The notes: generated from the letters alone by a model not told the origin. A stretch of 32,000 nt of DNA from Geotalea daltonii FRC-32 (GCF_000022265.1 NC_011979.1:2040001-2072000); one strand, 5' to 3'; numbered from the stretch's first letter, positions 6,885 to 28,583 are shown. Made by a program: numbers and translations.

Positions 6885-7235
6885 GACGAGGAAAAATTAT
6901 TTATCATTAATGATTTGTGGCCGAAACCGGAATAATATCAAGAACGAGAGGCCCTCAACCTCTTGCAGGAAGGGACACGACGGGCATGCGTCACTGATGC
7001 GTGACGGTTAAAATCAAGATTTTTCAGCAACCTTCTTTTTGTCCGGCAGAACCCCCACTTGTTTATCAATTTGGGTGAGGTAAATTATGTGCAGATTAAA
7101 TTGCTCATAATGATTCCACATCCACCAACCCAACAGGCCCACACTAAGACAAACGATAAAACATGCTGTCCAAAAAAACAGCTGCCTGATCAGGATTTGA
7201 GATGCCGATGCAATTTTCGACGCGGGAGGTGCAGA

Positions 7236-9347
7236 ATGTATAAACGGACCCTGTTTTTGATTTCGATCTGTCTGCTGCTGGCGGGTATCACCGTTTCGGG
7301 ATGTTCAGATGATAGGGGCGATTCCCGGACTGCTTCCGACAATGTCACCAAGGTTTATTACGACTATCTGGCAGAGGGCAAGCATGTGGCGCTTGCGGCA
7401 GCCCAGCCACAATTTCCTGCCAGCGGCGAACTTTATTCCGATAACGCAAGCATCTTTAAATTGTTGCCGGCGAAAGCGACCGCACTGCAAAAAAGCCAGG
7501 CTGAGCCGATACTCACCGACTTCGTCCTTTATTCACCTCCTGCGCCCTTAAGCAAACGGGTAGCATCGACGGTCACTGACGCCCCGTTTTCCTCCGCACC
7601 AGGTATCCCGAGCCTCAAAAAACCGGATGTTATTCCGCTCGCCTGCTCGGGGCTGACCGGCACCGATCTTCGGCTCTGTCTGGACAACCTGGGGGTAAGC
7701 TCGGCCCCAGAGAGCGAGCATGTTTCCCAGCATGACCCGCAATCACTGAGTATCCAGGTGGGGCAATCGATCATCGATGCAATACCCGATAAAAGCATCC
7801 AGTCTCTGACCTCCAACGTTTCCAAAGCGGATCGGGATGCCATACTGGCCAGGCTCACCGATTTCACCAATGATGATTCAGCCCATGCAACCGTCGATAT
7901 GGCCGCGTTCGATCCCTTTGACGAAACTGATTACTCCCTCAGCACGGTAGCCATCTCCGACAATAGCAGTTCTGACATCGATGGTGACGGCGCACTGGAA
8001 CCACATTCGACAATGATCACGGAAATTGTAAAGCCCGTGGCATACAACAGGAATCCGTCTCCAACCCTGGATGCCTGCATCAGCAAGTATGGGGTGGCGA
8101 TCAAGGATCGTTATGTGGTTAAGCTGAGTACCTATGTTCACCTGGACTATCTGAAATCACAGCGACAGGTAATACCCCCGGTGCAGGACGGATCTTCCGG
8201 AAATGCCATCGACATGGAGGCCTCTCTCACCAATTACGAAGCCACCCACAATCTCAGAGCCATCAATCAGGCACTGGACGCGAACATAATCAAGGCAATA
8301 TATGGCTCACCTGCCATATTGCCCGGATCAGCCACTGAATATACCTTCATGTTCCAGTTGGCGCCCGATCTGATCAGTGGAGATTACAAAGAGCTATTAG
8401 GTCAGATATCATCTGCAGAAGATGCTGCTTGCCAGGAAGTTGTCGAGCAGCATATCAATCCCCGTACCGCCATTATCAGCGGCGTCTCCTCGGTAGGCAG
8501 CCGCCTGCAGAAAGGCACCGGCAATTCTCTGAGCGTTTTTTACCAGGTTCCGGCTGCCTTCAGCCGGCAACTGTCCGCCAAGCTTGCCTCGGCTCTAACC
8601 GGTGAGGCTGCTGCGTTGACGGCGGATGATGAGCCCATACGCGACTATTGCATGGTTGACGGCAATGGCCAAAAAGTTGCCGTGGTCGATCCACTGAATG
8701 GGGCCGTCATTCCTGCCTGCGAAAAATTCGATCAGAAGAGCATGGCCAAAATGGCGCTGTTCACCAAAAGCGGCGCCTGTAGCAATAATAAAGATGACTG
8801 GGCTTTTTACTACCCGTCACGGGCACGAACGCCGCGCTTCGGCAGGGGCATCCAGTTCATTCTGACCGAGTGGCTTTTGCACGACCAGGTGGGGGATTAC
8901 AAAAATATCCACTGGTATCAGAGCCATTGGAAGAGCGCCTTTCAGGTGCTGGTGAAAGGGTCGAAATTCGTCGCTGCCACCTATTTCAAAGTCCAACTGG
9001 GAGCGATCAAATATCCAAAACAGGCAGAGGCCACGATAGCTGTCTACATGGTCAATGCCCTTTTCCCACTCATGGGGGACATGCTGGCTAAATCAACCGG
9101 GATGAAGATTGCCGGCGTGGCCTTCTCCATGCCGGCCTATGTGGTGAACTTCTTTCTCGACATGGGTGCTGCCGATGCCGGCAATGCAACCTTCGGCGAC
9201 AAGGTGGCTGCTGGTGCAAAAGGTGCGTTGATCGGTTTTCTCGTCGACCGATTTACCGATGCGGTGGCCCAGATGATCGATGTGGAGGTGACCGGCTGGC
9301 AGGATATTTCCGATGACAGCCACCATGGGTGCTTTCAATTTGATTGA
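7236..9347 (+). CDS. Orphan large lipoprotein (703 aa) with a hydrophobic, small-residue-rich C-terminal region. No domain recognised.
   Basis: SD GGGAGG lies 6 nt before ATG 7236. The N-terminus is MYKRTLFLISICLLLAGITVSGC (signal peptide plus lipobox-like VSGC). The track ORF extension back to 7059 lacks both an SD and a signal peptide. The C-terminal ~130 aa are rich in A/G/V/F segments. Confidence 0.7.
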   Translation: MYKRTLFLISICLLLAGITVSGCSDDRGDSRTASDNVTKVYYDYLAEGKHVALAAAQPQFPASGELYSDNASIFKLLPAKATALQKSQAEPILTDFVLYSPPAPLSKRVASTVTDAPFSSAPGIPSLKKPDVIPLACSGLTGTDLRLCLDNLGVSSAPESEHVSQHDPQSLSIQVGQSIIDAIPDKSIQSLTSNVSKADRDAILARLTDFTNDDSAHATVDMAAFDPFDETDYSLSTVAISDNSSSDIDGDGALEPHSTMITEIVKPVAYNRNPSPTLDACISKYGVAIKDRYVVKLSTYVHLDYLKSQRQVIPPVQDGSSGNAIDMEASLTNYEATHNLRAINQALDANIIKAIYGSPAILPGSATEYTFMFQLAPDLISGDYKELLGQISSAEDAACQEVVEQHINPRTAIISGVSSVGSRLQKGTGNSLSVFYQVPAAFSRQLSAKLASALTGEAAALTADDEPIRDYCMVDGNGQKVAVVDPLNGAVIPACEKFDQKSMAKMALFTKSGACSNNKDDWAFYYPSRARTPRFGRGIQFILTEWLLHDQVGDYKNIHWYQSHWKSAFQVLVKGSKFVAATYFKVQLGAIKYPKQAEATIAVYMVNALFPLMGDMLAKSTGMKIAGVAFSMPAYVVNFFLDMGAADAGNATFGDKVAAGAKGALIGFLVDRFTDAVAQMIDVEVTGWQDISDDSHHGCFQFD

Positions 9348-12007: not shown

Positions 12008-12068
12008 ATCTCCTGCGAAAATGCCGATAAGTAAAGTGGACTTAAACACCGGTGACGGAGGTTGCGAC

Positions 12069-15000
12069 ATGGGGTGGTACGCCAATCTGAAAATAGGCAA
12101 GAAGCTTGCCTGCGGTTTTGCGGTCGTCATCGTTTTTTCCATTCTTATCGGCATCGTCGGCTTCCAGGGCATGCGAAGCATGGACGATACCCTTGATGAA
12201 ATCTACAACAAAAACATGCAGTCGGTCTTCCTGGCCAATCAGCTCTATGTGGAAGTGCTGTACCACTATCGGAGGGTCTACCGCCACGCTTTGGCTCCAA
12301 GCCTGGATGTCAAGGATACCGTTGCGTCACAGACCCAGATAAACGAAAAGACCATCGCCGAGGTTCTTGCCAAGTATCACAAGATGGAGCTGAATGCGCA
12401 GGAGGCGGAACTGGTGGACCGGTTCGAAAAGATCTGGCCTGAATATCTCCTGGTCAAGGAACGGGTCTTCAAGTTGTCCAGGGACAAGAGGGCGCCGGAA
12501 GCGGACGCTATTCTGGAAAAAGACGGGCGGGAGATTTTCAAGAAGCTGGACGACACCCTGGCAGAGCTGATCCGCAGGGAAATGTCCCATGCAAAAGAAG
12601 GGCGGGATCATGCTTCAAACCTGTTTCACTCCCGCATCGGCTGGTTTGTGGCCATGGTGCTGTTTGCCGTAACGACCGGGTTCATCATGGCCTCATACAT
12701 TACCCGGAGCATTGTCCGACCCATAACGGCCATCCTCGATGCCCTCCTCGGTATTTCCGGCTCATCCATGGAAAAATCCCATCTAGCCGAGGCTATCGCT
12801 TCGGGCGACCTGAGCCGCGACCTGCCCGACAGCAGGCCTATCCAGGTTGACCGCTCCTCCATCTCGAAGGATGAGACCGGCGATCTGGTCAGGGCTGTCT
12901 GCAACCTGGAGGAGGCGCAAACCACTCTGGACAGCGCCTTTCGTCAGATGACCAGTTCTCTGCGGCACAACCGCCAGGTGGAGCAGGATCTGGACTGGCT
13001 GAAAACGGGGCAGAACGAGTTGAATGCTTTGCTGAGGGGCGAACAGGCCATGAATGAAATGGCCGAAAAGGTGCTGGCCTACCTGGCCCGATACCTGGAT
13101 TGCGGGGTCGGAACCTTCTACTTTCATGATACGCAGGAGCAGAATCTGCGCATCATTGCCACCTATGCCTTCACCCGGAGGAAAAACCTTAACGACCGTC
13201 TCAATATGGGCGAAGGAGTCGCAGGTCAGGCGGCCAGGGAGCGGAAGATGATCTGCCTCTCTAATGTCCCCGACGATTACCTGGCCATTGCCTCTTCTTT
13301 GGGAGAGGCGGCGCCGCGCAATGTGGTGGTGCTTCCCCTGGTACACGACAATACCCTGCTGGGGGTGGTGGAGCTGGGGGCTTTCCACGGTTTTAACGAA
13401 AGGGAGTTGCAGCTGCTCGATTCGGTAATGGAAGGGCTGGCGGTGGGAATCAGCGTCAACATCTCTCGCCAGAGGGTCAATGAACTTCTGGAACAGACCC
13501 AGCAGCAGACCGAGGAGCTGCGCGTCCAGCAGGAAGAGCTGCAGCAATCCAACGAGGAACTTGAGGAACGTGCCCAGATGCTGGAACAGCAGCGGGAACA
13601 GATTCGGAACAAGAATAAAGAGGTGGAGGAGGCGAGCCGGGAACTGCAAAGGAAAGCCGACGAACTTGAACGGATCAGTGCCTATAAATCGGAATTTCTG
13701 GCCAATATGTCCCACGAGTTGCGCACGCCCCTCAACAGCCTGATGATCCTCTCCCACCTGCTCATGGACAACAAGGAAGGGAACCTGAGCGAGAAACAGG
13801 TGGGGTTCGCCCGCACCATGAACGATGCAGGGAACGATCTCCTGAACCTGATCAACGACATCCTCGATCTGTCCAAGGTGGAGGCGGGGAGGCTGGAATT
13901 CCACTTCGAGGAACTGAAAGTAATCGATCTGCTGGAACCGCTGGAGACCATGTTCAGACCACTGGCCGAGCAGAAGGGGCTTGCTTTCCAGATAAAGACC
14001 GGGGCAGGGGTGCCGGAATGCATCAGCACCGATATGCAGCGCACCCAGCAGATCCTGAAAAACCTCCTTTCCAATGCCTTCAAATTTACCCATAACGGAG
14101 GTGTAGAAGTGCTGGCCGGGATTCCGGCCCCCGGCGAAAATATCCTGCCGGTACCGGCCCTGGCCATTGCCATCAGAGACAGCGGCATCGGCATTTCTGC
14201 GGAAAAACAGGAGATCGTGTTCAATGCCTTCCAGCAGGGGGACGGCAGCACCAGCCGCAAGTTCGGCGGTACCGGCCTTGGCTTGTCCATCTCCCGGCAG
14301 CTTGCACGCGGCATGCAGGGCGATATTACCCTGGCAAGCCGCGAAGGGGAGGGGAGCGTCTTCACTGTTTACCTGCCATTGACCCTTTCGCCCGATAACT
14401 CTTCAACCAAAGCCGTGCCAGATAACTCTGCTCCGATTCAAGGCGCTTCTGCCGCTGGCCCTGCTCCGGTTCGGCCAATACCGGTGCCGTCTGCTGCATC
14501 AACCCTGGCCGATGACCGGGAGAAGCTGCAGAAGGGACAGCGCAGTATTCTCCTCATCGAGGATGATCTCAACTTTGCCCGAATCCTGATGGAGATGGTC
14601 CGGGAACGTGGATTTGCAGCCCTGGCGGCTGCCAATGGCGAGGATGGGCTCTACCTTGCCGACCATTGCCTGCCCGATGCCATCATCCTTGATGTCATGC
14701 TCCCCCATGTGGACGGTTGGGGGGTAATGCGCCTCCTCAAGGAAAATCCCCGCACCCGCCATATTCCCGTCCACTTCCTTACCTGCCTGGAGGACCGGCA
14801 GAAGGCCATGTCCATGGGGGCGATCGGCTTCGTCTCCAAGCCGGTGGACCCGGATCAACTGGCGGAACTGTTCGCCACCATCGAAAATGCCATCTCCCGC
14901 TCGGTACGCAAGCTGCTCATCGTCGAGGATGATCCGGCCGAGTCCAGGGGGCTGGTGGCACTTCTGGAAGGGCGGGATGTGGCGATCAGTGTGGCGGGGA

Positions 15001-15716
15001 GCGGCAAGGAAGCCATCGAGCTGCTCTCGCGGGAAGCCTTCGACTGCATGGTCCTTGACCTGGGCTTGTCGGACATGTCCGGTTTCGATCTGCTGGAGCA
15101 TATCGAGCATGAGGACGAAAAACGGCGCCTTCCGGTCATCATCCATTCGGGCAGGAGCCTTTCCCATGAAGAAGAGCTGAAACTGCGCCGCTACACGGAA
15201 AGCATCATCATCAAAGGGGCGAAAAGCCCCGAGCGGCTGCTTAACGAGGTGACGCTTTTCCTGCATCAGGTGGAGAGTTCCCTGAACCCGGACAAGCAGC
15301 GTATGCTGCGCGCCTCCCTTGACAAGGAAACCATGCTGGAGGGGAAAAAGGTCCTGCTGGTGGATGACGACATGCGCAACATCTTTTCCCTGACCAGCAT
15401 CCTGGCGGAGAAGCACATGGTCGTGGTGGAGGCGGAAAACGGCCGGGAAGCCCTGGCGCGCCTGCAGGAACACCCCGATGTGGACCTGGTGCTGATGGAT
15501 ATCATGATGCCGGAAATGGACGGCTATGAAACCATCAGGACAATCCGCAACGATCCACATTTCAGCAGGCTCAGCATCATCGCCATGACCGCCAAGGCAC
15601 TAAAGGGAGACCAGGAGAAGTGTCTTGAGGCGGGGGCGAGCGATTACATTTCCAAGCCCATCGAGGTGGAAAAACTGCTTTCCTTGATGCGGGTCTGGCT
15701 CTATCAAAAGGGGTAG
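12069..15716 (+). CDS. Hybrid sensor histidine kinase with the order TM, MCP-type four-helix-bundle sensor, TM, HAMP-like region, GAF, Q/E-rich coiled coil, HisKA, HATPase, then three receiver domains.
   Basis: SD GGAGG lies 8 nt before ATG 12069. Recognised elements: TM1 LACGFAVVIVFSILIGIVGF; TM2 IGWFVAMVLFAVTTGFIMASYI; GAF (GEGVAGQAARERKMI...LGVVELGAF); H-box SHELRTPLNSL (His codon 13713-13715); N/G boxes (LLSNAFKFT, DSGIGI, GGTGLGLSI). The three REC domains have acceptor Asp contexts IILDVMLP, MVLDLGLS and VLMDIMMP. Confidence 0.9.
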   Translation: MGWYANLKIGKKLACGFAVVIVFSILIGIVGFQGMRSMDDTLDEIYNKNMQSVFLANQLYVEVLYHYRRVYRHALAPSLDVKDTVASQTQINEKTIAEVLAKYHKMELNAQEAELVDRFEKIWPEYLLVKERVFKLSRDKRAPEADAILEKDGREIFKKLDDTLAELIRREMSHAKEGRDHASNLFHSRIGWFVAMVLFAVTTGFIMASYITRSIVRPITAILDALLGISGSSMEKSHLAEAIASGDLSRDLPDSRPIQVDRSSISKDETGDLVRAVCNLEEAQTTLDSAFRQMTSSLRHNRQVEQDLDWLKTGQNELNALLRGEQAMNEMAEKVLAYLARYLDCGVGTFYFHDTQEQNLRIIATYAFTRRKNLNDRLNMGEGVAGQAARERKMICLSNVPDDYLAIASSLGEAAPRNVVVLPLVHDNTLLGVVELGAFHGFNERELQLLDSVMEGLAVGISVNISRQRVNELLEQTQQQTEELRVQQEELQQSNEELEERAQMLEQQREQIRNKNKEVEEASRELQRKADELERISAYKSEFLANMSHELRTPLNSLMILSHLLMDNKEGNLSEKQVGFARTMNDAGNDLLNLINDILDLSKVEAGRLEFHFEELKVIDLLEPLETMFRPLAEQKGLAFQIKTGAGVPECISTDMQRTQQILKNLLSNAFKFTHNGGVEVLAGIPAPGENILPVPALAIAIRDSGIGISAEKQEIVFNAFQQGDGSTSRKFGGTGLGLSISRQLARGMQGDITLASREGEGSVFTVYLPLTLSPDNSSTKAVPDNSAPIQGASAAGPAPVRPIPVPSAASTLADDREKLQKGQRSILLIEDDLNFARILMEMVRERGFAALAAANGEDGLYLADHCLPDAIILDVMLPHVDGWGVMRLLKENPRTRHIPVHFLTCLEDRQKAMSMGAIGFVSKPVDPDQLAELFATIENAISRSVRKLLIVEDDPAESRGLVALLEGRDVAISVAGSGKEAIELLSREAFDCMVLDLGLSDMSGFDLLEHIEHEDEKRRLPVIIHSGRSLSHEEELKLRRYTESIIIKGAKSPERLLNEVTLFLHQVESSLNPDKQRMLRASLDKETMLEGKKVLLVDDDMRNIFSLTSILAEKHMVVVEAENGREALARLQEHPDVDLVLMDIMMPEMDGYETIRTIRNDPHFSRLSIIAMTAKALKGDQEKCLEAGASDYISKPIEVEKLLSLMRVWLYQKG

Positions 15717-15719
15717 CCC

Positions 15720-16550
15720 ATGGAAGACGACGAGCGGTTCGCCATAGAGAGCGATCTGCTGCTGGAAGCCCTCTACCGCATGTACGGGTACGACTTCCGC
15801 GACTATGCCGAAGCCTCCATCAGGCGCAGATTGAGCGCGTGGCTTGCCGGTTCCGGCTTTTCCAGCCTTTCGGAAGCCCAGGGCAAACTGCTGCGGGACC
15901 GCTCCCTCTTCGACCAGTTCGTGCGGGGCATTACCGTAAACGTTTCGGAGATGTTCCGGGATCCCCTGTTCTTCAAGGCGTTGCGGGAGCAGGTCGTTCC
16001 CCATCTCAAGACATATTCTTTCGTCAAGATCTGGCATGCGGGGTGCTCCACCGGTGAAGAGGTCTATTCCATGGCTATCTTGCTCCAGGAGGAGGGACTG
16101 GCGGGGCGTTACCGGATTTACGCCACCGACATCAACGAGAATGTGCTGGGCAAGGCGCGGGAGGGAATCTATCCTCTGCAGGAGATGCGGCGCTTTACGG
16201 AAAACTATCAGAAAAGCGGTGGCCGCCGGGATTTTGCCGACTATTACACGGCGCGGTACGATCACGCCATGCTCATGCCGGCTCTTAAGAAGGACATTGT
16301 TTTTGCCGCCCATAATCTGGCGGTGGATGCGGATTTCGGTGAAATGAACATGGTTTTCTGCCGAAACGTGCTTATTTATTTCAAGGCTTCCCTGAAGGAA
16401 CGGGTGTTGAGCCTTTTCGACCGGGCCCTCCTGCCGGGTGGATTTCTCTGTCTAGGTACCAAGGAAACCCTGGAAAACCGGGATATATTCGCAGACTACC
16501 ATGAAATCGGGCGGGGTACGCGCATCTATGCCAAGTGCTACAAGTCATGA
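15720..16550 (+). CDS. cheR: CheR-type protein-glutamate O-methyltransferase.
   Basis: There is an N-terminal helical CheR_N-like segment (YGYDFRDYAEASIRRRL). The SAM-binding motif is IWHAGCSTGEEVYSMAILL, followed by YATDIN...ARE GIY. The ATG is 3 nt after the kinase stop. Confidence 0.9.
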   Translation: MEDDERFAIESDLLLEALYRMYGYDFRDYAEASIRRRLSAWLAGSGFSSLSEAQGKLLRDRSLFDQFVRGITVNVSEMFRDPLFFKALREQVVPHLKTYSFVKIWHAGCSTGEEVYSMAILLQEEGLAGRYRIYATDINENVLGKAREGIYPLQEMRRFTENYQKSGGRRDFADYYTARYDHAMLMPALKKDIVFAAHNLAVDADFGEMNMVFCRNVLIYFKASLKERVLSLFDRALLPGGFLCLGTKETLENRDIFADYHEIGRGTRIYAKCYKS

Positions 16551-17121
16551 GAGCCCAAAACGTTTCCGGGTGATTGTCATGGGTGTTTCCACCGGCGGCG
16601 TGCAGGCGCTGAAAAGGGTACTGGGAGGTCTGGCGGCAGACTTTCCCCTGCCGATCCTCATCGTCCAGCACATGAGTCCGGCATCGGGAGACGGCCTGGC
16701 GAAGCTGCTTGATCAGCTGTGTCTTTTGCGGATCAAGGAAGCTGACGAGGAGGAGGTTATGCAAGGGGGATGCGCCTATCTGGCCCCGCCCAACTACCAC
16801 CTGCTGGTTGAAAGCAACGGCAGCCTGTCCCTTTCCGCCGAGAAGCCGGTCAATTTTGCGCGGCCTTCGGTAGATGTGCTCTTTGAATCGGCAGCCGCCG
16901 CTTTCGGCCCGGCGGTAATCGGCATCGTCCTTACCGGTGCCGGCTATGATGGTGGGCGAGGCTTGCTTCGGATCAAGGAACAGGGGGGGATGGCAATTGT
17001 CCAGGACCCGGCAGATGCCGATGCCTCATCCATGCCGAAATATGCCTTGAGCCTTGTGACCGCCGACCATGTGGCAAGGTTGACGGAGCTGCCGGGATTG
17101 CTGACGAGACTGGTATCTTAG
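16528..17121 (+). CDS. cheB: CheB-type protein-glutamate methylesterase, catalytic domain only (no receiver domain).
   Basis: VIVMGVSTGGVQAL (Ser), ILIVQHMSP (His) and RPSVDVLFESAA (Asp) match the CheB catalytic triad contexts. The protein is only ~197 aa. The start is uncertain (ATG 16528 or 16501), and either choice overlaps the cheR 3' end. Confidence 0.85.
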   Translation: MPSATSHESPKRFRVIVMGVSTGGVQALKRVLGGLAADFPLPILIVQHMSPASGDGLAKLLDQLCLLRIKEADEEEVMQGGCAYLAPPNYHLLVESNGSLSLSAEKPVNFARPSVDVLFESAAAAFGPAVIGIVLTGAGYDGGRGLLRIKEQGGMAIVQDPADADASSMPKYALSLVTADHVARLTELPGLLTRLVS

Positions 17122-17167
17122 TGACGGCCGCAACAGGCTGATGGGCAGATAGGAAAGGAGAGCTGCA

Positions 17168-19153
17168 ATGTGGAAACAACCGGTTTCCATTCTACTGGTG
17201 GATGACAGGGAGGAGAACCTGACGGCGCTTGAGGCGCTACTCTCCGATATGGGGCTGGATATGGTCAAGGCTCTGTCCGGCAATGATGCCCTGCGGCTGG
17301 CCCTGAAGCAGGATTTTGCCTTGGTCCTTATGGATGTGCAGATGCCGGAAATGGATGGATTCGAGACCGCGGAACTGATGCGGAGCAACCCGAAGACCCG
17401 GCATCTTCCCATTATCTTCGTTACTGCCGGCATGAAGGATATGAGTTACCAGTTCAAGGGGTATGATGCCGGCGCTGTCGACTATCTGCTGAAGCCGCTG
17501 GAGCCGGCCATCCTGAGAAGCAAGGTCAGGGTCTTTCGCGCGCTGTACACGCAACGCTGTGCCCTGGAAGAGCGCGAGTCCACACTGGAGGCCCTGGTGG
17601 AGGAACGAACCGCCGAACTGGTACGAACGACGGAGAATCTTCAGGAAAGCGAGGAGCGATACCGGAATGCATTCGAGCTGGCAGCGGTGGGTATTGCCCA
17701 TGTTGCGCTGAACGGGCTGCTGGTCAGGGTCAATGCCAGCATGTGCCGTGACCTTGGGTATGACCCTGGCGAATTGCAGAAGCTGACCCTGGCGGAGATC
17801 ACCCATGGGGAGGATCTGGCACTGGACCAGGCCGAGGTGCAGTCACTGCTGTCTGGATGCACCTCCTCCTATGAAATGGAAAAGCGATTTCTCCGCAAGA
17901 ACGGTTCCATCGTTTGGGGGCACATGGCCGTTGCCCTGGCCCGTGGCGAGAGCGGCGAACCGATCCACTACATAACCGTTTTCGAAAACATCACTGCCCG
18001 CAAACAGCTGGAACAACAGCTGCGCCAGGCACAGAAGATGGAGGCCATCGGCCAGTTGGCGGGGGGCATAGCCCACGACTTCAACAATCTGCTCAGCGTC
18101 ATTATCGGCTATGGAAACTTGGCGCAGATGAAAATGGATGCTGATGATCCGCTGAAATGCAACCTGGACCAGATTATTGCCGCAGCAGAAAAGGCTGCCC
18201 AGCTGACCAAGGGGCTTTTGGCCTTCAGCCGCAAACAGGAGATGAAGCAGCAGCCGGTGGAGCTTAACGGCTTGATCGAAAGCGTAACGAAGATCCTCAA
18301 GCGGGTGATCGGTGAGGACATTCAGCTTGAGACCTCTTTTCATGAAGGAACTCTTTTCATCAATGGGGACAGCGGCCAGATCGATCAGGTGCTGATGAAT
18401 CTGGCCACCAATGCCAGGGATGCCATGCCGGATGGCGGGAAATTCACCGTTTCGACGGCTCTGCAGGAAATAGAAGATTCCTTCATCGCCATGCACGGTT
18501 TCGGCAAGCCCGGCGCCTACGCCCTGATCAATGTTTCCGACAGCGGCAAGGGAATGGACCAGCATACCCTGCAGAACATCTTCGATCCTTTCTTTACCAC
18601 CAAGGAAGTGGGCAAAGGGACGGGCCTCGGCATGTCCATAGTTTACGGCATCGTCACCCAGCACAACGGCTATATCAAGGTGTACAGCGAGCCGGACATC
18701 GGCACCACCTTCAGGTTGTATCTACCCTTGATCGAGGACAACCAGGTGGAGGAAGCAAAGTTGTCTCCCGCTCTGCCCAGGGGGGGCACCGAGACCATCC
18801 TGCTGGCCGAGGATGACCAGGCCATCAGGGATATGGAAGTGAGTATTCTGCAGGATTTCGGCTATCTTGTGATGGTGGCCAGGGACGGGCAGGAAGCGGT
18901 GGATATTTTCCAGGAAAACCGCGGCAATATAGATCTGGTGCTCCTGGATATGATCATGCCGAAAAAGAACGGCTCGGAGGCCTGCCGCGAGATCAGGGTG
19001 CTGGCCCCACAGGTGAAGGTGCTGTTCATAAGCGGTTATACCGCCGATCTGATCCAGGAAAAGGGGTTGCTGGAGAAAGGAGTTGAACTGGTTATCAAGC
19101 CGGTTTCCCCTCCCGAGCTGGCGAGAAAGGTGCGGGAGTTGCTGGATCGCTGA
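17168..19153 (+). CDS. Hybrid histidine kinase with the order receiver, coiled coil, PAS, HisKA, HATPase, receiver.
   Basis: SD GGAAAGGAG lies upstream. REC1 is [11 protein letters not shown]...[13 protein letters not shown]...KP. The PAS core is [19 protein letters not shown]...[11 protein letters not shown]. The H-box is [11 protein letters not shown]; N/G boxes are [16 protein letters not shown] and GTGLGMS. The C-terminal REC is ILLAEDDQ...[13 protein letters not shown]. Confidence 0.9.
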
Positions 19154-20180
19154 CGGCTCTCGGTTTCATGTGCAGGAATCCCTTCAACTCCTGCTCGGCA
19201 GCCTGGTAGTCCTCCAGTGACAGGTTGCAGTCCTCCACCCAGTCCCGGTTCTTGTAATAGACCTTGTCATAATAGTTTTTCACCAGCTCGGCCATGAATG
19301 GCTGCAGTTCCCAGCGTTCCAGATGGCCCTCGATCTCGGCGTATTTGTCGCCTCCCAGCCTCTTTTTGATGCGCAACAGGGCCACCGCCATTCCCTCTTT
19401 GAACTCCGGACGGCCGTATTCCCGGATCAGCCTTTCCACCCTGGTTTCCAGCGATGCATGGCACCAGACCTTGGTGCTCTCCTGCATTACTTCGTACATG
19501 TTGCCGGGCAGGGACAGCTTGCCGATCCTTTTGCTCTCACCCTCCACGATGAGCGGCTTGTCCCCGGGCAGTTTGCGCAGGGCGTCCCACAGGAGGCTTT
19601 CGAACCATTTCTGGGAAAGATCCTGGGTAAGCCCCAGTTCGCCGAAGGCTGAGCCCCGATGGCAGGCAAGCCCTTCCAGGTCGATGAAGGAAAAGTCATT
19701 CCGGTCGAGACCGAGGATGAAGGGGGTCTTGCCGATGCCGGTCATGCCGTGGATGACCACCAGCCGGGCGGGGGGCTGGAAGTTCTCGAAACAGGCCAGG
19801 ACCTGGTTGCGGTAGGTCTTGTAGCCCCCCTGGAGCTGGACCGCATCGTAACCGGTCAAATCGAGGATGGCGGAAACGGTCTTGCTTCTCAGGCCGCCGC
19901 GCCAGCAGTAGACGAGGATGGGTCTTCCTGCCGCAAGCCCGCCTATCTCGGCAACCAGCTCGGGAAAACGGGGGGCGGTGAGCTCCAGACCGCGGATGCG
20001 GGCTTCCCTGGGCCCGGTCTGCTTGTAAAGGGTGCCGATCTCCACCCGCTCTTCATTGGACAGGAGCGGCACGTTGACGGCACCGGGGATATGGTCTTCC
20101 TCGAACTCCAGCGGGGTGCGCACATCCACTACCAGATGGCTGTCGAGAAGGGATTGGTTGAAAGTTACGGGTTGCGGCAC
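19095..20180 (-). CDS. selU: tRNA 2-selenouridine synthase (rhodanese domain plus P-loop domain).
   Basis: The rhodanese part is VVDVRTPLEFEEDHIPGAVNVPL and the active-site loop LVYCWRGGLRS. Walker A is HGMTGIGKT. AAGGAG-N6-GTG supports a GTG start at 20180 rather than ATG 20207. The 3' end overlaps the convergent kinase gene by 59 nt. Confidence 0.85.
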   Translation of the reverse strand: MPQPVTFNQSLLDSHLVVDVRTPLEFEEDHIPGAVNVPLLSNEERVEIGTLYKQTGPREARIRGLELTAPRFPELVAEIGGLAAGRPILVYCWRGGLRSKTVSAILDLTGYDAVQLQGGYKTYRNQVLACFENFQPPARLVVIHGMTGIGKTPFILGLDRNDFSFIDLEGLACHRGSAFGELGLTQDLSQKWFESLLWDALRKLPGDKPLIVEGESKRIGKLSLPGNMYEVMQESTKVWCHASLETRVERLIREYGRPEFKEGMAVALLRIKKRLGGDKYAEIEGHLERWELQPFMAELVKNYYDKVYYKNRDWVEDCNLSLEDYQAAEQELKGFLHMKPRAVSDPATPAPFSPAREGKPA

Positions 20181-20259
20181 AGTTATCTCCTTAAAAAAGC
20201 ACCCCATTATAAAGAGCAGGGGACCCTATTGCAAGGAGAAGGAATTTTATGTTGCAGCC

Positions 20260-23156: not shown

Positions 23157-23213
23157 AATCTGATTTTTTTTGTATACATAAAAGTATTTTAAATACCACT
23201 AAAAGGAGGCGAT

Positions 23214-24494
23214 ATGGCAAACGGTTCGGATTTTACAAAAGCACTCGAGATTGGCCGTCCACCCAACGTGGCAAAGCTGTTCCCCAACTCGAAAGCACTG
23301 CTGGTGAGCGGCAAGGTTATAGATAGGGCGATGGGTGCGAAGGGGAATGCCATTGCCCTGGCCGCCAACGGCAGGAATCACTTCGTCATCAGAGGCGTAC
23401 TGCAGGCTGCCCAGCGCGCAAACGCGGCTGTAATTATCGAGATAGCCAAGTCGGAGGGGGGCAGATCCGCCTATTGTCCTGTCAACTACTGGAACATGGC
23501 CCGCCAGGTGGATGCTGTCTGCAACGAACTGGGCATCACCGTGCCGGTGGCTATTCATGCGGACCATTACGGCATCAAGAGCGACAAGGACCTGGCCGAA
23601 GCAAAGGTAGAGGTTCCCACCATGTTCGAGGCAGGCATTACCTCCATTGCCATCGACGCCTCCCATCTTCCCGACGACAAGAACCTGCTGGCCAATATCG
23701 CTATCAACCCGTCGATTCCTTCCTGGGCAGGCCTGGAGACCGAAGTTGGTGAGATCAAGGGGAGTCAGGGCCTTTCCACGGTGCCCGAAGCGCTTTTCCT
23801 TATCCAGGGGCTCAATGCCCATGATATTTTTCCCGACTGGATCGCCCTGAACAATGGGACTACACATGGCCTGGAGGCAAGCGATGCCGGCATTCAGGTA
23901 GGTCTTACCGCCGAGATTCACCATGCCCTGGAAAAATACAAGGTCTCTGGCGCCCAGCACGGCACTTCGGGCAACAGCTCGGACAGGTTGCGCGAGATTG
24001 CCAGGAAGACTGCCACCACCAAGGCCAACGTCGCCACGGCGCTGCAGATGATTTCCTGGGGCCTTGAAGTAAACGATTACGGCAATGCACAGCTGGACGC
24101 CAACGGCAACTTCATCAAGGTAAAGGGCGAAGGCGTCACCGAGGAGATGTGGGTGGAAATGGTTGCCTATGCCGAATCCAAGGGCTGGAAAAAGGGAGAC
24201 TACAAGAGCCTTAACCTGCCATTCGAAAATAAACTTCTGGCTCAGCCGAAAGAAGTCAGGGAGAGAATGGCCAGGCGGGTGGAAGATTTTGCCTACAAGA
24301 TGATCACCGAAGTTCTGAACTCGCAGGATACGGCGCAGCTGGCAATCCAGGCCATCCTCAAGGCGGGCTCCTACGATGTGGGCGCCAAGATTGGCCGTAT
24401 CGAAGACCCTGCCCAATGGACCGAGGGCAAGATCGTTGAAAGGGCGGCTACAATCGGCGGGGACAAGGGACCGTCCGGAAATTTCGACGACTGA
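23214..24494 (+). CDS. fba: Class II (metal-dependent) fructose/ketose-bisphosphate aldolase, long form (426 aa).
   Basis: Blocks resembling the PF01116 family appear in order: AIALAANGRNHFVIRGVLQAAQRANAAVIIEIAKSE, VAIHADH, TSIAIDASHLP, ETEVGEIKG, ALNNGTTHG, SGAQHGTSG. There is a strong SD. Confidence 0.85.
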   Translation: MANGSDFTKALEIGRPPNVAKLFPNSKALLVSGKVIDRAMGAKGNAIALAANGRNHFVIRGVLQAAQRANAAVIIEIAKSEGGRSAYCPVNYWNMARQVDAVCNELGITVPVAIHADHYGIKSDKDLAEAKVEVPTMFEAGITSIAIDASHLPDDKNLLANIAINPSIPSWAGLETEVGEIKGSQGLSTVPEALFLIQGLNAHDIFPDWIALNNGTTHGLEASDAGIQVGLTAEIHHALEKYKVSGAQHGTSGNSSDRLREIARKTATTKANVATALQMISWGLEVNDYGNAQLDANGNFIKVKGEGVTEEMWVEMVAYAESKGWKKGDYKSLNLPFENKLLAQPKEVRERMARRVEDFAYKMITEVLNSQDTAQLAIQAILKAGSYDVGAKIGRIEDPAQWTEGKIVERAATIGGDKGPSGNFDD

Positions 24495-24520
24495 TCTTTG
24501 TCGGCCGAAGTTAAGTCGAT

Positions 24521-24635
24521 AAAAGCCCCCATCTGCAGTACAAGCCCTAATCGTGAGACATGAGGTGTGTATACCCACATGTGGCAGGAGACAAGATAAG
24601 GGCAGTGCTGCAATTTGGGGGCTTTTCATGTCTTT
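24521..24635 (+). terminator. Unusually long (~106 nt) imperfect hairpin followed by a T-rich run. It could be a structured terminator or a small-RNA element.
   Basis: AAAAGCCCCCA (24521-24531) pairs with TGGGGGCTTTT (24616-24626). Inner pairs are TGCAG/CTGCA and GCCCT/AGGGC. The apex contains the perfect palindrome CCACATGTGG (24574-24583). CTTTTCATGTCTTTTG follows. Confidence 0.5.
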
Positions 24636-24701: not shown

Positions 24702-25070
24702 TTGGTAAACAATCGCAATTTTTCCCGTGTGAGCTTTGCCATCGATGCTTTGGTAACCCAGGCGGAAATCACCATCAAAGGCGAAGTGAGGAATATCAGC
24801 TTGCAGGGGCTGTATATTGAAACCGATGGGAAGCTTGATGCCGGTCTCCCGGTGGATGTCTCCATTCAACTCAGTGGTACGACGCCGGAAGTGGCGATCA
24901 AGGCGACCGGCAGTGTTGTCAGGATCGATGAAAACGGCGTCGGCATAAAATTCAGCAAAATAGATGTGGATTCTTTTGCTCACCTGCGCAACGTCGTCTC
25001 TTATCAGTGTGGGGATGGAGACAAGGTTATCGGTGAATTTTTCAAGTACCTTGATGGTCAGAGCAAATGA
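24702..25070 (+). CDS. PilZ-domain protein (c-di-GMP receptor).
   Basis: AAGGAGG-N6-TTG start. The RxxxR motif (RNFSR) lies at the N-terminus and the (D/N)xSxxG motif (NISLQG) ~25 aa later, as in canonical PilZ domains. Confidence 0.8.
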   Translation: MVNNRNFSRVSFAIDALVTQAEITIKGEVRNISLQGLYIETDGKLDAGLPVDVSIQLSGTTPEVAIKATGSVVRIDENGVGIKFSKIDVDSFAHLRNVVSYQCGDGDKVIGEFFKYLDGQSK

Positions 25071-25119
25071 TCGGATGCCATGGGCTTGGCCCGAGCAGGG
25101 AAAGCCTAAGGATGCTGAA

Positions 25120-25902
25120 ATGACAATGCTGGAAATTCCCTTACTAAAGGCCTGGTTTGCCGAGTATTGCCGTTCTTTCGCTTCTTCGGATCAAGAGAAA
25201 CAACGGAACTTTTCTCTCAAGGAATACCACACCCACAAGGTCTGCGAAAACATTCGGTCTATTACGCTGGGTGAATCGCTTAGCCCGGAAAAGCAGGACA
25301 TTGCCGAGATCATTGCTCTCTTTCATGATCTGGGGCGTTTTGAACAGTACCGCCGCTACAAGACGTTCAAGGATAGCGACTCCATAAATCATGCTGCCCT
25401 AAGTGCCGATATTCTTCAGGAAAAAAATGTGCTTGCCGCCCTCGCCAACGCTGAACGGGAGCTCATCCTGAAGTCCGTTCGGCTGCACAATGTCTTTAGC
25501 ATCCCGCAGAACCTGACTCAGGAAGAAATCCTGTTTTTGAAGCTGATCCGTGATGCCGACAAACTTGATATCTGGCGTGTTTTCATAGACTTTTATGCTT
25601 TGCCGGAGACTGAGCGTGCCTCGGCGGCTGGACTCGGCTTTCCCGACCTTCCCGAATACTCTCCTGAAGTGCTGGCAACTCTGAACAGCAGGCGCATGGT
25701 GAGCCTGTCCATGCTGAAGACTTTGAATGACTTCAAGCTACTGCAGCTTTCCTGGGTCTTCGACCTGAACTTCACTACCTCGTTCAGAATATTGCAGGAG
25801 CGGGCTTATATAGACCATCTCTCGGCAACATTGCCGAAAGACGAGAGAATCCTGGATGCCGTGGTCACCCTCAAGACATTTGTTCATGAAAGATTGACAT
25901 AG
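25120..25902 (+). CDS. HD-domain metal-dependent phosphohydrolase.
   Basis: The H...HD...H...D pattern is present: YHTHKV, IALFHDLGRFEQ, INHAAL, RLHNV, IRDADKLDI. AAGGA-N7-ATG lies at 25120. An alternative ATG is at 25075. Confidence 0.75.
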   Translation: MTMLEIPLLKAWFAEYCRSFASSDQEKQRNFSLKEYHTHKVCENIRSITLGESLSPEKQDIAEIIALFHDLGRFEQYRRYKTFKDSDSINHAALSADILQEKNVLAALANAERELILKSVRLHNVFSIPQNLTQEEILFLKLIRDADKLDIWRVFIDFYALPETERASAAGLGFPDLPEYSPEVLATLNSRRMVSLSMLKTLNDFKLLQLSWVFDLNFTTSFRILQERAYIDHLSATLPKDERILDAVVTLKTFVHERLT

Positions 25903-27303: not shown

Positions 27304-28476
27304 TTAGAGGCCGAATTGGGTGCAGACACCGCTCAATTCAGAGAATGAGGAATAAGTTTTCGTTGGCTGACCTGTGACGGCAACGGTAACGCCGGTCGAG
27401 CTGAAGGTGATGGTCGTGTTGTCATTGACGGTCATTACGCCTGCCGTGCGGTCATCCTTGATTGGAGTAATGGTTTTTATGGCGAACGTACCATCGATGC
27501 AGGTTGAAGGGGTGCTCTGGATGGCGAAGGTGCCGTTTACGCTGTAGGTACCTGTTGAGAAATATCTGTCGACACCGAAGTTCTGGAAGGTGACTCCCAC
27601 CGAACGCTCCTGGTTGTAAACACCGTTGACGAGGGTGTATTCCTTGTCGACAAAAGATCCACCGGTGATGTCTACTGAGTAAATGCCATTAATGAATTCA
27701 TAGCTTGTTTTGAAATTGGAGATAATGGTCTCGTACTTTGTTTTTAATACATAATCTTCTTCAGTGTATGTGCCGTTCAGGGTGGCAGAAATTGCACCGG
27801 TCGTCGTATTAGCTGTGAAACCGGTCATGGTAAGGATACTTCTGTCTTCGGACTCTTTTACGCTAGATGTGGTGTCGGCATAGAAGGTGGTAGTGAAGGG
27901 ACTTGAAGCTGAACCGATGCTGTAGTTGGCACTGACGGTGTTGCTGGTGTTGGAAGTACCGCTGACAGAGATGGTGCCGTTTAACTGAATGGAACCAAAA
28001 CGGCAGTTACTATAGTCGATACTTGCGCCTGATTCACTGCTTGTTATGGTGGCGGTGCCGGTGGTGCAGAGTGAAGCACTCATATCCGTAGTTGCTGCAA
28101 CAGTTTTGGCGGTGCCATTGCGCCAGTTGATGACGGCATTGAGCGGCGCGGCATCATTTGCCAATCGCTGCATCCACAGGTTGATGGTGGTGCCTTTAAC
28201 CGCGCTGGTTTCCTTGCTAAGGCCGCTAGTGGTGCCGAAAGCCAGTCCCTGGAAGCTACTTGAGCTGCTGCCCATGTCGTAACCACCCTCTGTGACAGCC
28301 ACTCCGGACAATGCTGCTTTGGCGCCACTGTCAGCACTGACTATGGCAGTGGGTTGCGAAGAAATGGCCGGGGCTGTAGTGGCGCCGGTGGTGGTGCCGC
28401 TGCTACTGCTCCCTCCACCGCCACAACCTGCAACCAGTAGTGCCAGAGCAATTGATGCAAAAATCCGCTGTTTCAT
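27304..28476 (-). CDS. Ser/Thr/Gly-rich lipoprotein (390 aa). No domain recognised.
   Basis: AAGGAG-N5-ATG lies at 28476. The N-terminus is MKQRIFASIALALLVAGCGGGGSSSS (classic lipobox LVAGC). The remainder is beta-strand-like and T/S/N-rich. Confidence 0.75.
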   Translation of the reverse strand: MKQRIFASIALALLVAGCGGGGSSSSGTTTGATTAPAISSQPTAIVSADSGAKAALSGVAVTEGGYDMGSSSSSFQGLAFGTTSGLSKETSAVKGTTINLWMQRLANDAAPLNAVINWRNGTAKTVAATTDMSASLCTTGTATITSSESGASIDYSNCRFGSIQLNGTISVSGTSNTSNTVSANYSIGSASSPFTTTFYADTTSSVKESEDRSILTMTGFTANTTTGAISATLNGTYTEEDYVLKTKYETIISNFKTSYEFINGIYSVDITGGSFVDKEYTLVNGVYNQERSVGVTFQNFGVDRYFSTGTYSVNGTFAIQSTPSTCIDGTFAIKTITPIKDDRTAGVMTVNDNTTITFSSTGVTVAVTGQPTKTYSSFSELSGVCTQFGL

Positions 28477-28583
28477 ACATTCTCCTTTATTCATTAAATT
28501 GAATGTACGCAAATTAACACATCAGATTGAAAAGTAAAATTAAAATATTAAATACCTGCAACAGTATTGTTAATACAAGATGG

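Follow-up and report, generated by a model that had tools for sequence, protein, structure and literature searches.

A CfcA-type kinase-CheR-CheB gene cluster in Geotalea daltonii and a candidate methyl-accepting helix in its sensor kinase

Chemotaxis-type methylation enzymes encoded next to a sensor kinase have been described in pseudomonads, where the cluster known in Pseudomonas putida as cfcABCDE goes by bmsA in P. alkylphenolica and by 3082-3079 in P. brassicacearum and specifies, in the same order as found here, a hybrid sensor kinase, CheR, CheB and a REC-containing hybrid kinase (PMC4951495, PMC8175716). The kinase CfcA has been described (bioRxiv 10.1101/2024.11.25.625174) as having a periplasmic sensor between two transmembrane (TM) helices, with GAF, the kinase core and three receivers after it. 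A chemotaxis role for P. putida CfcB and CfcC (CheR3/CheB3) was ruled out in work cited in PMC4951495, and an unpublished remark in that paper states that the CfcA-dependent crinkly phenotype persisted in mutants of the other cfc genes. By gene order and domain plan, the Geotalea daltonii locus analysed here is a CfcA-type kinase-CheR-CheB cluster, and thus one case of a widespread and previously named type of two-component locus, with methylation enzymes of the chemotaxis kind encoded beside a sensor kinase. The cluster is therefore not new, being already known as cfcABCDE/bmsA; the point made about the substrate in an earlier note on this DNA stands, as the accessible literature identifies none for CheR and CheB of the Pseudomonas cfcABCD/bmsA cluster.

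In the window, that is, the whole 32-kb stretch analysed, ORF calls place four closely spaced genes on the plus strand: a kinase gene (K1), cheR, cheB and a second kinase gene (K2). As the earlier note had described, cheR starts (15720) 3 nt past the end of K1 (15716), cheB overlaps cheR (by 50 nt if it starts at 16501, by 23 nt if at 16528), and K2, its start preceded by AAGGAG, begins 46 nt after cheB. Promoter and terminator scans of the locus gave results at or below chance, so the operon-like packing proposed in the note is upheld in its spacing, which is the sole argument for an operon. Pfam searches across all large ORFs of the window returned no MCPsignal, CheW or CheA domain, nor did phmmer searches in which E. 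coli Tar, CheW, CheA, CheY and CheZ were compared with all window ORFs of 70 aa or more; the claimed absence of CheA, CheW, CheY and an MCP signalling domain from the 32 kb is thus borne out. Over the four proteins, the HMM scan that the note had suggested found 4HB_MCP, GAF, HisKA, HATPase_c, Response_reg, CheR and CheB_methylest.

K1 (12069..15716, plus strand, within an ORF open from 12021) is a CfcA-type membrane hybrid sensor kinase, whose start at 12069 is supported by a GGAGG that precedes the ATG by 7 nt; residues are numbered here with the ORF opening at 12021 as the origin. Its domains run in the order TM, four-helix-bundle (4HB) sensor, TM, HAMP-like linker, GAF, coiled coil, HisKA/HATPase and three REC, all on the plus strand. 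The periplasmic sensor (12084..12620; Pfam 4HB_MCP_1, E=8e-29; TarH, 1e-9) has on either side one of exactly two hydrophobic peaks in the hydropathy profile, TM1 (12105-12173) and TM2 (12636-12704). The MCP-like sensor seen in the note is well founded in these parts, but its HAMP portion, a linker with an insertion (12705..13040), scores below threshold (19.3 bits against a cut-off of 25), with a bona fide HAMP at the equivalent position in homologues. There follow, again as described, a cytoplasmic GAF domain (13047..13451; GAF_2, 5e-20), the coiled coil, a kinase core (13686..14384) comprising HisKA (13686-13889) and HATPase_c (14031-14384), with the phospho-accepting His565 (13713-13715) within DHp helix 1, and three receivers (14529..15713; aa 837-961, 977-1101 and 1107-1231; Pfam Response_reg in three stretches), the boundaries of which are our own segments placed on the ORF by phmmer. 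An MCP signalling hairpin is absent from K1, MCPsignal reaching 17.6 bits in the coiled coil against a cut-off of 34.6, amid dozens of chance coiled-coil matches.

This plan is that of CfcA, a likeness drawn from the published description of CfcA (PP_3761) and from its H-box; the K1 H-box, FLANMSHELRTP, is the same as the ANMSHEL of P. putida CfcA, taken from a primer sequence (PMC4951495). The two kinases differ in their periplasmic sensor, 4HB_MCP in K1 and CHASE3 in Pseudomonas CfcA (bioRxiv 10.1101/2024.11.25.625174), and homologues of K1 carry dCache or CHASE3 in place of 4HB. We therefore treat the sensor type (4HB, dCache, CHASE3) as a variable rather than a defining feature of the family, and the MCP-like sensor, which the earlier note had made part of the module's logic, as incidental to it. 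MCP methylation sites lie outside the sensor domain.

To judge from their sequences, both enzymes look active. The cheR gene (15720..16550, plus strand; Pfam CheR_N plus CheR) encodes a protein-glutamate O-methyltransferase with invariant SAM-binding and catalytic residues (R37, F79-R80, G112-E113-E114, D137 and C214-R215-N216-V217), but without the Gly-rich loop with which the E. coli enzyme binds the pentapeptide. Its identity is 52-69% with cluster CheRs from other phyla and about 30% with E. coli CheR, and its NCBIfam equivalog score, 95 against a cut-off of 435, marks it as a divergent, cluster-specific subtype. The cheB gene (16528..17121, plus strand; alternative start 16501) encodes a receiver-less methylesterase/deamidase with Pfam CheB_methylest only, and the start of a 97%-identical Geotalea CheB corresponds to 16528. 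The Ser/His/Asp contexts reported earlier (GVSTGG, VQHM and TGAGYDG) align with those of the T. maritima CheB catalytic domain (3SFT), the triad is invariant in 25 homologues, and the receiver is absent, as it is from 80/80 related CheBs; among more than 6500 homologues, each of the 120 listed is a short protein (about 190-240 aa) with CheB_methylest as its one domain. For cluster CheR and CheB taken together, 52-69% identity is kept across phyla, against about 30-35% to the E. coli enzymes. Taking away the receiver domain of CheB activates the catalytic domain.

K2 (17168..19153, plus strand) is a receiver-first hybrid kinase in which Pfam finds REC (17168-17557), PAS (17618-18022), HisKA/HATPase (18023-18757) and a second REC (18773-19150); the description as a REC-PAS-kinase was correct for the first three and overlooked the C-terminal receiver. 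The N-terminal REC is of a specific type that accompanies cheR and cheB (at least 90 bits in 68/80 and 54/80 loci), and is found fused to HK, fused to GGDEF(-EAL) or stand-alone, in several loci as a separate gene between cheR and cheB. Related loci end in REC-GGDEF-EAL or REC-GGDEF proteins resembling P. putida CfcR, a REC-GGDEF-EAL response regulator; no such protein is encoded in the 32 kb, where the receiver-first K2 has a PAS-kinase output instead, and cfcR is likewise unlinked to its cfc cluster in P. putida. Rather than lying between two hybrid kinases, the locus is better read as a kinase, CheR, CheB and a dedicated receiver, the output of which is here a second kinase. The constant parts of the cassette are a GAF-coiled coil-HK-REC3 kinase, CheR, REC-less CheB and this K2-type receiver with variable output.

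The Q/E-rich coiled coil singled out in the earlier note proved to be the best-conserved part of the aligned GAF-to-DHp region. Invariant and near-invariant columns concentrate there, and R..(5)LL..(5)Q..EL..Q.EEL...NEEL is (near-)invariant against a mean column identity of 45% for the surrounding region. The nearly invariant heptad motif, LLxxTQxQxEELxVQQEELxQxNEELEE (SRQRVNELLEQTQQQTEELRVQQEELQQSNEELEERAQMLEQQREQI in K1; 13464..13604, plus strand), is by its conservation and register a candidate methyl-accepting helix, with EE pairs in consecutive heptads at E498/E499 (13512-13517), E505/E506 (13533-13538) and E512/E513 (13554-13559), and a further pair at E515/E516 (13563-13568). Copies of the motif are duplicated at 14-, 21- or 28-residue steps, and the distance from the motif Asn to the phospho-His is 47, 54, 61, 68, 75, 82, 89 or 110, that is, 5 mod 7 in 121/121 homologues. 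AlphaFold2, run on alignment A5 (mean pLDDT 85.6), predicts a single unbroken helix at aa 460-583 (13398..13769, plus strand; segment positions 131-254, along which block pLDDT is about 85-94), which spans the last GAF helix, the motif and DHp helix 1 including His565. In a search of 1.84 billion proteins the motif pattern matched 2025 representative clusters, and of the 145 motif-bearing representatives that were classified, 132 have a GAF domain ahead of the motif. Each EE pair is followed by L-R/Q/E, where the MCP consensus has small residues; [ASTG]xx[EQ][EQ]xx[ASTG] has 0 matches in K1 (1.3 expected by chance; 7 in Tar), and the swapping of E and Q that typifies MCP sites is seldom seen at the paired positions. 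The coiled coil is nonetheless a concrete candidate methyl acceptor, and its paired-glutamate run the likely methylation site of the cassette.

Comparable neighbourhoods, which had been suspected in other genomes, occur in at least 10 phyla, with loci from Desulfuromonadota, Rhodocyclaceae/Burkholderiales, Bacteroidota, Nitrospirota, Firmicutes, Chloroflexota, Planctomycetota, Hydrogenedentota, Deinococcota and Alphaproteobacteria, and also on plasmids. All 54 well-flanked loci found via REC-less CheB have cheR, 44 a K1-like GAF-coiled coil-HK-REC3 kinase and 51 a REC-first protein (the 9 without K1 among them), while an MCP is present in 2/54 and CheA/CheW in 0/54. The converse sample, independent of CheB, consisted of 50 metagenomic loci fetched by the motif pattern alone and with at least 2.5 kb downstream; cheR was found in 39/50 (78%), cheB in 34/50, an MCP in 3/50 and CheA/CheW in 1/50. 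The arrangement without CheA, CheW and MCP is thus conserved and no accident. In related Geobacter-type loci, kinase-less sensor-HAMP-GAF proteins that end just past the motif are encoded between K1 and cheR.

We take the best explanation, to which we give a probability of roughly 0.55, to be that the motif helix of K1 is methylated by CheR, and demethylated and deamidated by CheB, and that this tunes the output of K1. The four-helix bundle would sense a periplasmic signal, and GAF possibly a cytoplasmic one, and the signal would travel along one long dimeric helix to the kinase core. His565 would then be autophosphorylated and the phosphoryl group passed via the K1 receivers to the dedicated K2-type receiver, which in G. 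daltonii would control the second PAS-kinase. We infer that CheR methylates the stacked pairs E498/E499, E505/E506 and E512/E513, perhaps also E515/E516, and that CheB, presumably always active, reverses this methylation and could also deamidate conserved glutamines at its flanks; as this CheB lacks a receiver, feedback, if any, would act through conformation-dependent access to the sites, not through CheB phosphorylation. Charge neutralisation may alter helix packing or stability just upstream of the phospho-histidine and shift the kinase/phosphatase balance, which would provide the kinase with a gain that resets slowly, much as methylation of MCPs does for CheA. In favour of K1 methylation we counted synteny, the converse test, motif conservation, the register, the unbroken helix, the Tar parallel, the NEEL arrays of CheB-CheR fusions described below, the kinase-less motif proteins, the intact active sites and the non-chemotaxis genetics of CheR3/CheB3. 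Against it we counted the absent MCP consensus, the rare E/Q interchange, possible cross-talk with MCPs encoded elsewhere in the genome, the crinkly phenotype kept in other cfc mutants, some loci with cheR and no cheB (e.g. D. deserti), the 11/50 K1-like kinases that conserve the motif with no cheR within reach, and the 9/54 cheR-cheB-K2 loci with neither a K1-like kinase nor EEL heptads within 10 kb; the two of these examined, L027 and L064, have a CHASE4-PAS kinase nearby.

The enzymes might instead modify another member of the cassette, such as K2 or its receiver, a K1 receiver or the kinase-less GAF-coiled-coil protein, with the K1 motif as a docking or dimerisation element. We consider this unlikely, although no partner of cheR and cheB is as constant as the K2-type receiver (68/80 loci; a REC-first protein in 51/54), which in several loci is a stand-alone gene between them, and the motif is retained in kinases without a neighbouring cheR. 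The linkers between REC and kinase in K2-like proteins share no common conserved acidic heptad pattern, the single match of K2 to the loose MCP methylation consensus is at chance level, and the CheB-CheR fusions, which have NEEL arrays, match neither of two K2 REC queries; to our knowledge, no CheR has been found to act on a receiver domain. Somewhat less probable still is that CheR and CheB serve conventional chemoreceptors encoded elsewhere, the kinases merely timing their production or sharing the operon. By domain and active site these are ordinary enzymes, K1 lacks the MCP consensus, and in one metagenomic locus (L122) a K1-like kinase and cheR are followed directly by REC-GGDEF, cheA, cheW and an MCP. 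Geobacter-type genomes have many MCPs elsewhere, and relatives several che clusters, so cross-talk is possible in this organism. Yet MCPs (2/54 and 3/50) and CheA/CheW (0/54 and 1/50) are rare at such loci, the cluster enzymes resemble one another far more than those of E. coli (52-69% against about 30-35%), CheR has no pentapeptide-binding loop, and the P. putida enzymes were reported, in the work cited above, to have no chemotaxis role. The cassette is moreover abundant in Bacteroidota, which, as far as we know, mostly lack CheA/MCP arrays.

A plain signalling helix, that is, a polar-core coiled coil that sets the DHp register while CheR and CheB act otherwise or are relics, is the least probable of these readings. 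Strict register and a predicted continuous helix would be selected for anyway, and one assay found no phenotype for cfc mutants other than cfcA. The motif is also kept without nearby cheR in 11/50 loci, so methylation is not required to explain its conservation. Such a helix, however, leaves unexplained the invariance of Glu-Glu, Gln-Gln and Asn specifically over about ten phyla, the adjacency of cheR in 78% of such kinases, the same kind of array in unrelated CheB-CheR fusions, and two enzymes with intact, strongly conserved active sites.

Methylation of the K1 helix, the preferred reading, can be set beside three known arrangements. S-helix linkers of sensor kinases and cyclases are parallel coiled coils with a polar core that join a sensory domain to the DHp in fixed register, and the K1 linker probably resembles them in these respects; the specific QQEEL...NEELEE signature, its tandem expansion and its genomic tie to CheR/CheB are not known as properties of S-helices in general. 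CheB-CheR fusions with PAS domains, which we take to be the architecture listed by KEGG as K13924, likewise place CheB and CheR outside any che cluster, and two of them (L005, 10647-13682; L134, 8041-11085) carry in cis an xEEL heptad array (NEELQST repeats; NEELQxT) that adjoins a sensory domain. They differ in that one polypeptide carries both enzymes as well as the array, which precedes PAS_10, not a kinase; neither has GAF, and HisKA/HATPase was detected neither in L005 (Pfam) nor in L134 (phmmer queries). Their enzymes share only about 30% identity with CheR and CheB of the window, no more than the E. coli enzymes do, and we know of no function for these fusions.

The E. coli Tar/Tsr adaptation system likewise pairs a SAM-dependent CheR with a Ser-His-Asp CheB, and Tar, like K1, has its Glu/Gln pairs set heptad after heptad along an extended dimeric helical region; the EE pairs of K1 (498-499, 505-506 and 512-513) share heptad columns over three turns, as do EQ/EE/EQ of Tar (295, 302 and 309), and in both kinds of helix length changes are multiples of seven residues. 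Unlike the MCP system, the cassette has no MCP signalling hairpin, CheA or CheW, and its CheB lacks the N-terminal receiver of chemosensory CheB, hence phosphorylation feedback. The proposed acceptor has neither the MCP consensus nor a C-terminal pentapeptide, and would be a parallel coiled coil running into a HisKA kinase, where that of MCPs is an antiparallel four-helix bundle.

The four co-directional genes of the cluster lie on the forward strand at the coordinates that the earlier note had read from the sequence, as confirmed by ORF calling. They encode a sensor hybrid kinase, K1 (12069-15716, with GGAGG 7 nt ahead of the ATG at 12069; the longest form of the ORF starts at 12021), CheR (15720-16550, after a gap of 3 nt), CheB (16528, or alternatively 16501, to 17121, overlapping the 3' end of cheR by 23 or 50 nt) and a second hybrid kinase, K2 (17168-19153, with a 46-nt gap ahead and AAGGAG upstream). 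Pfam assigned 4HB_MCP_1/TarH, GAF, HisKA, HATPase_c and three receivers to K1, CheR_N plus CheR to CheR, CheB_methylest and no other domain to CheB, and REC, PAS, HisKA, HATPase_c and REC, in that order, to K2. Hydropathy analysis places exactly two hydrophobic segments in K1, one on each side of the four-helix bundle, while a HAMP match stays below threshold (19.3 bits against a cut-off of 25). Neither Pfam nor phmmer, the latter using real E. coli Che proteins (from locus L081) against all window ORFs of 70 aa or more, detected an MCP signalling domain, CheA, CheW, CheY or CheZ in the 32 kb, in agreement with the absence of cheA, cheW, cheY and MCP signalling domains claimed previously. Promoter and terminator scans of the window were at or below shuffle expectation.

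The remaining window products with Pfam assignments are an fn3-rich surface protein, HAD, PhnA/YjdM, DUF72, GntR-aminotransferase, rhodanese, P-type ATPase, PilZ, HD, Tim44-like, SpoU, PALP and SLT proteins, and three long ORFs have no family at E<=0.01: 7059-9347 (+), 23199-24629 (-) and 27304-28512 (-), of 762, 476 and 402 aa. The rhodanese-domain ORF (19095-20207, reverse strand) is convergent with K2, and its 3' end overlaps the last 59 nt of K2. About 5.5 kb downstream of K2, a PilZ-domain ORF (24702-25070) and an HD-domain ORF (24964-25902) overlap; both may be related to c-di-GMP, a point of interest given the c-di-GMP outputs of related clusters. The window DNA is 93-97% identical to that of Geotalea toluenoxydans JCM 15764, whose locus (L001) carries about 6.9 kb of extra DNA right after K2 (L001 12640-19575 against window 19147-19174), coding for RHS-repeat proteins. 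There are 37 alignment gaps over the cluster in that assembly, where K1 and K2 are split into several ORFs; these breaks are probably sequencing errors.

Both modification enzymes look active from their residues. The CheB triad contexts GVSTGG, VQHM and TGAGYDG can be aligned with the catalytic domain of T. maritima CheB (3SFT) and are invariant among 25 homologues, and the window CheR keeps R37, F79-R80, G112-E113-E114, D137 and C214-R215-N216-V217, all invariant in the alignment with E. coli CheR. The glycine-rich beta-subdomain loop with which E. coli CheR binds the receptor pentapeptide is missing from the window CheR, and an NWETF-like tail is found at the C-terminus of neither K1 nor K2. 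Both enzymes fall far under the NCBI cut-offs for the chemotaxis equivalogs, and the cluster enzymes share 52-69% identity among Geobacter-type, Bacteroidales and Firmicutes loci.

The arrangement is widely conserved. A search of species genomes with an alignment of receiver-less CheBs yielded 80 loci, spread over Desulfuromonadota, Rhodocyclaceae/Burkholderiales, Bacteroidota, Nitrospirota, Firmicutes, Chloroflexota, Planctomycetota, Hydrogenedentota and other groups; we called their ORFs and searched these with the window domains and the E. coli Che proteins. The CheB lacks a receiver in all 80, and cheR is adjacent in 76; the other four have none in the gene table, three of these contigs ending just upstream. 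In 54 loci the flanks extend for 6 kb or more on the upstream side and 2.5 kb or more on the downstream side. Every one of these has cheR, 51 have a REC-first multidomain protein and 44 (plus the frameshifted L001) a GAF-coiled coil-HK-REC3 kinase, while an MCP occurs in 2 and CheA or CheW in none. Genes for CheR and receiver-less CheB that neighbour hybrid kinases number in the thousands. K1-homologous kinases are also found on megaplasmids of Deinococcus, Rhizobium, Ensifer, Azospirillum, Methylocystis, Novosphingobium, Paraburkholderia and Streptomycetaceae.

The constant parts of the cluster are the GAF-coiled coil-HK-REC3 kinase, CheR, receiver-less CheB and one particular receiver type. 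The periplasmic sensor is not constant: it is 4HB_MCP in the window, most Geobacter-type loci and the Rhodocyclaceae locus L007, dCache in Bacteroidales loci, and CHASE3 in Pseudomonas and one motif-bearing representative. The MCP-like look of the K1 N-terminus, which the earlier note had pointed out, is therefore incidental. The constant receiver is the N-terminal REC of K2, which reaches 90 bits or more (median 153) in 68/80 loci of the first set and 54/80 of the second. It is found ahead of kinase or GGDEF(-EAL) domains, or as a free-standing protein encoded between cheR and cheB, and the receiver-first gene of related loci encodes REC-HK-REC, REC-PAS-GAF-PAS-GGDEF-EAL or REC-GGDEF. With the receiver type constant and the outputs variable, K2 is best read as the receiver-first output protein of the system. 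The stand-alone form, a 160-aa receiver, occurs between cheR and cheB in L121, L128, L141, L143 (12733-13203), L144, L147, L152 and L161; the five scored (L121, L128, L141, L143 and L152) are of the K2 N-terminal type (134-152 bits; other receiver queries give about 30-65 bits on the same domain) and not of the CheB type.

Between the GAF domain and the H-box, every K1 homologue carries LLxxTQxQxEELxVQQEELxQ[ST]NEELEE. Aligning 25 diverse GAF-to-DHp segments (mean column identity 45%) showed invariance or near-invariance at R483, L489, L490, Q496, E499, L500, Q503, E505, E506, L507, N511, E512, E513 and L514 (numbered from the start at 12021). Searching proteins with the GAF-coiled-coil segment returned short fragments only, which served just to build alignments. 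The motif occurs in two or three tandem copies in Bacteroidota, Firmicutes and Planctomycetota. Across 121 proteins its Asn lies 47, 54, 61, 68, 75, 82, 89 or 110 residues from the phospho-His, all equal to 5 modulo 7, and in 103 of them the last copy is 54 residues upstream. AlphaFold2 (K1 aa 330-640, mean pLDDT 85.6) predicts a single unbroken helix from aa 460 to 583 that includes both the motif and His565. The K1 heptads QQTEELR / VQQEELQ / QSNEELE resemble SRTEQQA / SALEETA / ASMEQLT of E. coli Tar, which surround the methylation sites Q295, E302 and Q309, and the acidic/amide pairs of the two proteins share the same two heptad columns over three turns. A match of the coiled coil to MCPsignal (17.6 bits) was dismissed as generic to coiled coils, and no solved-structure relatives of the coiled coil were found beyond ordinary DHp helices.

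Searched against 1.84 billion proteins, a profile of the 46-residue motif matched 2025 representative clusters at E<=1e-3, of which 412 also passed E<=1e-10. Of 145 representatives classified among the best 150 hits, 132 have GAF directly ahead of the motif; 110 run on into a kinase, and 35 end right after the motif or continue into PAS domains. Kinase-less examples include P0322 (4HB-GAF-motif-stop) and P0192 (dCache-HAMP-GAF-motif-stop). Kinase-less proteins also lie between K1 and cheR in the Geobacter-type loci L006 (6834-9185), L008 (6785-9151), L010 (6831-9185), L011 (6816-9197), L013 (1718-3184 and 7849-9168), L086 (11898-14252) and L102 (8143-10506). Such sensor-HAMP-GAF-motif proteins end a few residues past the motif, most of them between a K1-like kinase and cheR; they might serve as additional methyl-accepting inputs, or pair with the kinase coiled coil as heterodimers.

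Conversely, when metagenomic loci were fetched with the motif pattern alone, 50 kinases had 2.5 kb or more of sequence downstream, and of these 39 had cheR and 34 had cheB, while an MCP was nearby in 3 and CheA/CheW in 1. At a single locus, L122 (7798-18477), a motif kinase and cheR are followed directly by REC-GGDEF, cheA, cheW and a 4HB MCP; this locus may combine the kinase cassette with a genuine chemosensory cluster. A second architecture is provided by CheB-CheR fusions (L005 10647-13682; L134 8041-11085) consisting of CheB_methylest, CheR_N, CheR and PAS_10, with PAS_4 in addition in L005. Their enzyme domains are about 30% identical to those of the window, no closer than those of E. 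coli, and five to six tandem NEELQxT heptads immediately precede PAS_10. In L005 the fusion gene adjoins a separate cheR-cheB pair.

Taken together, anatomy and association suggest, with a probability of about 0.55, that CheR and CheB methylate and demethylate the K1 helix. K1 would pass periplasmic, and possibly GAF-sensed, signals along a long parallel coiled coil into the DHp; CheR would methylate the stacked Glu pairs, and the receiver-less CheB would remove the methyl groups and might also deamidate the conserved Gln-Gln. Neutralising charge 54-68 residues ahead of the phospho-His would then bias the kinase/phosphatase equilibrium. E. coli CheB is activated by removal of its receiver, so the window CheB is expected to be always active, and feedback would have to come from conformation-dependent availability of the substrate. 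The earlier proposal that glutamate methylation acts directly on a sensor kinase is partly supported, and its underlying observation is confirmed.

Several observations count against this model, and some suit other substrates. In nine of the 54 cheR-cheB-K2 loci, a kinase of this type is lacking and EEL heptads are absent within 10 kb. That another cassette component is the methyl acceptor we consider unlikely; K2 was rejected for this role, having no conserved acidic heptads in its linkers. In L027 (9138-14636) and L064 (8961-15067), cheR-cheB-(REC-HK-REC) trios stand beside a CHASE4-PAS kinase without EEL heptads, which has a C-terminal receiver in L027 only. That the enzymes serve MCPs encoded elsewhere is a little less likely still. 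The host genus has MCPs elsewhere, and the MCP methylation consensus finds no match in K1 versus seven in Tar; on the other side stands the near absence of MCPs from the related loci. Plasmid 2 of D. deserti (L162 6838-16172) encodes, in this order, a motif-bearing 1644-aa kinase, CheR, a REC-kinase and a diguanylate cyclase. Deinococcus is non-motile, which would make this locus a useful test case for an MCP-independent substrate. It has no cheB, and cheR without cheB, seen at some other loci too, also counts against the model.

A purely structural motif is the least probable of these alternatives. It would account for retention of the motif in 11 of the 50 kinases, those without cheR within reach, but not for the cheR next to the other 39. 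E/Q interchange at the paired positions is rare, which is a further point against methylation of K1. The first EE pair looks degraded (QQNEL, QQKQL) in some kinases with no cheR found on the contig (the flanks of L107 and L114 being too short to judge); we set this aside as evidence, given that it involves five closely related metagenomic sequences only and other cheR-less kinases retain QQEEL. Finally, in one assay, P. putida mutants of the other cfc genes kept the CfcA-dependent phenotype (PMC4951495), which also weighs against methylation of K1.

More tentatively, at slightly less than even odds, the QQEEL...NEELEE cassette may be a portable methyl-accepting module marking a second, MCP-independent class of CheR/CheB substrates. 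If so, it would have been placed ahead of histidine kinases, added to sensor-GAF proteins that lack a kinase and, in the form of NEEL arrays, joined to CheB-CheR-PAS fusions, and would provide adaptation, or memory, for ordinary two-component and c-di-GMP signalling in at least 10 bacterial phyla, including lineages without chemotaxis arrays. Reversible glutamate methylation is the textbook memory device of chemotaxis, seen as a property of chemoreceptor arrays; were conserved Glu pairs on a signalling helix its target here, methylation-based sensory adaptation would extend to two-component systems generally. Our analysis names four residue pairs (498/499, 505/506, 512/513 and 515/516) and a 47-residue peptide, and P. 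putida, with cfcA/cfcB/cfcC, offers a tractable model, so that the question can be tested directly.

Clusters of this type are already known, widespread and named. In P. putida cfcABCDE, cfcA encodes a hybrid kinase and cfcD carries a receiver, and cfcB/cfcC, which belong to a set of three CheR/CheB pairs, play no part in chemotaxis (PMC4951495); the same cluster is present as 3082-3079 in P. brassicacearum and as bmsA in P. alkylphenolica (PMC8175716). In Pseudomonas the cluster controls c-di-GMP and biofilm formation, CfcA phosphorylating the REC-GGDEF-EAL protein CfcR. The published Cfc, BmsA and P. brassicacearum work that we found identifies no methyl acceptor of CfcB/CfcC. In bioRxiv 10.1101/2024.11.25.625174, CfcA is described as having its periplasmic CHASE sensor flanked by two TM helices, with GAF, the kinase core and three receivers after it, a plan that K1 shares with a different sensor. 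The window system is a new member of this cluster type, with a 4HB sensor and a PAS-kinase output, and to what is known of such clusters we add a specific, testable candidate for the methyl-accepting site and evidence that heptad arrays of one kind go with CheR/CheB in two architectures unrelated to each other.
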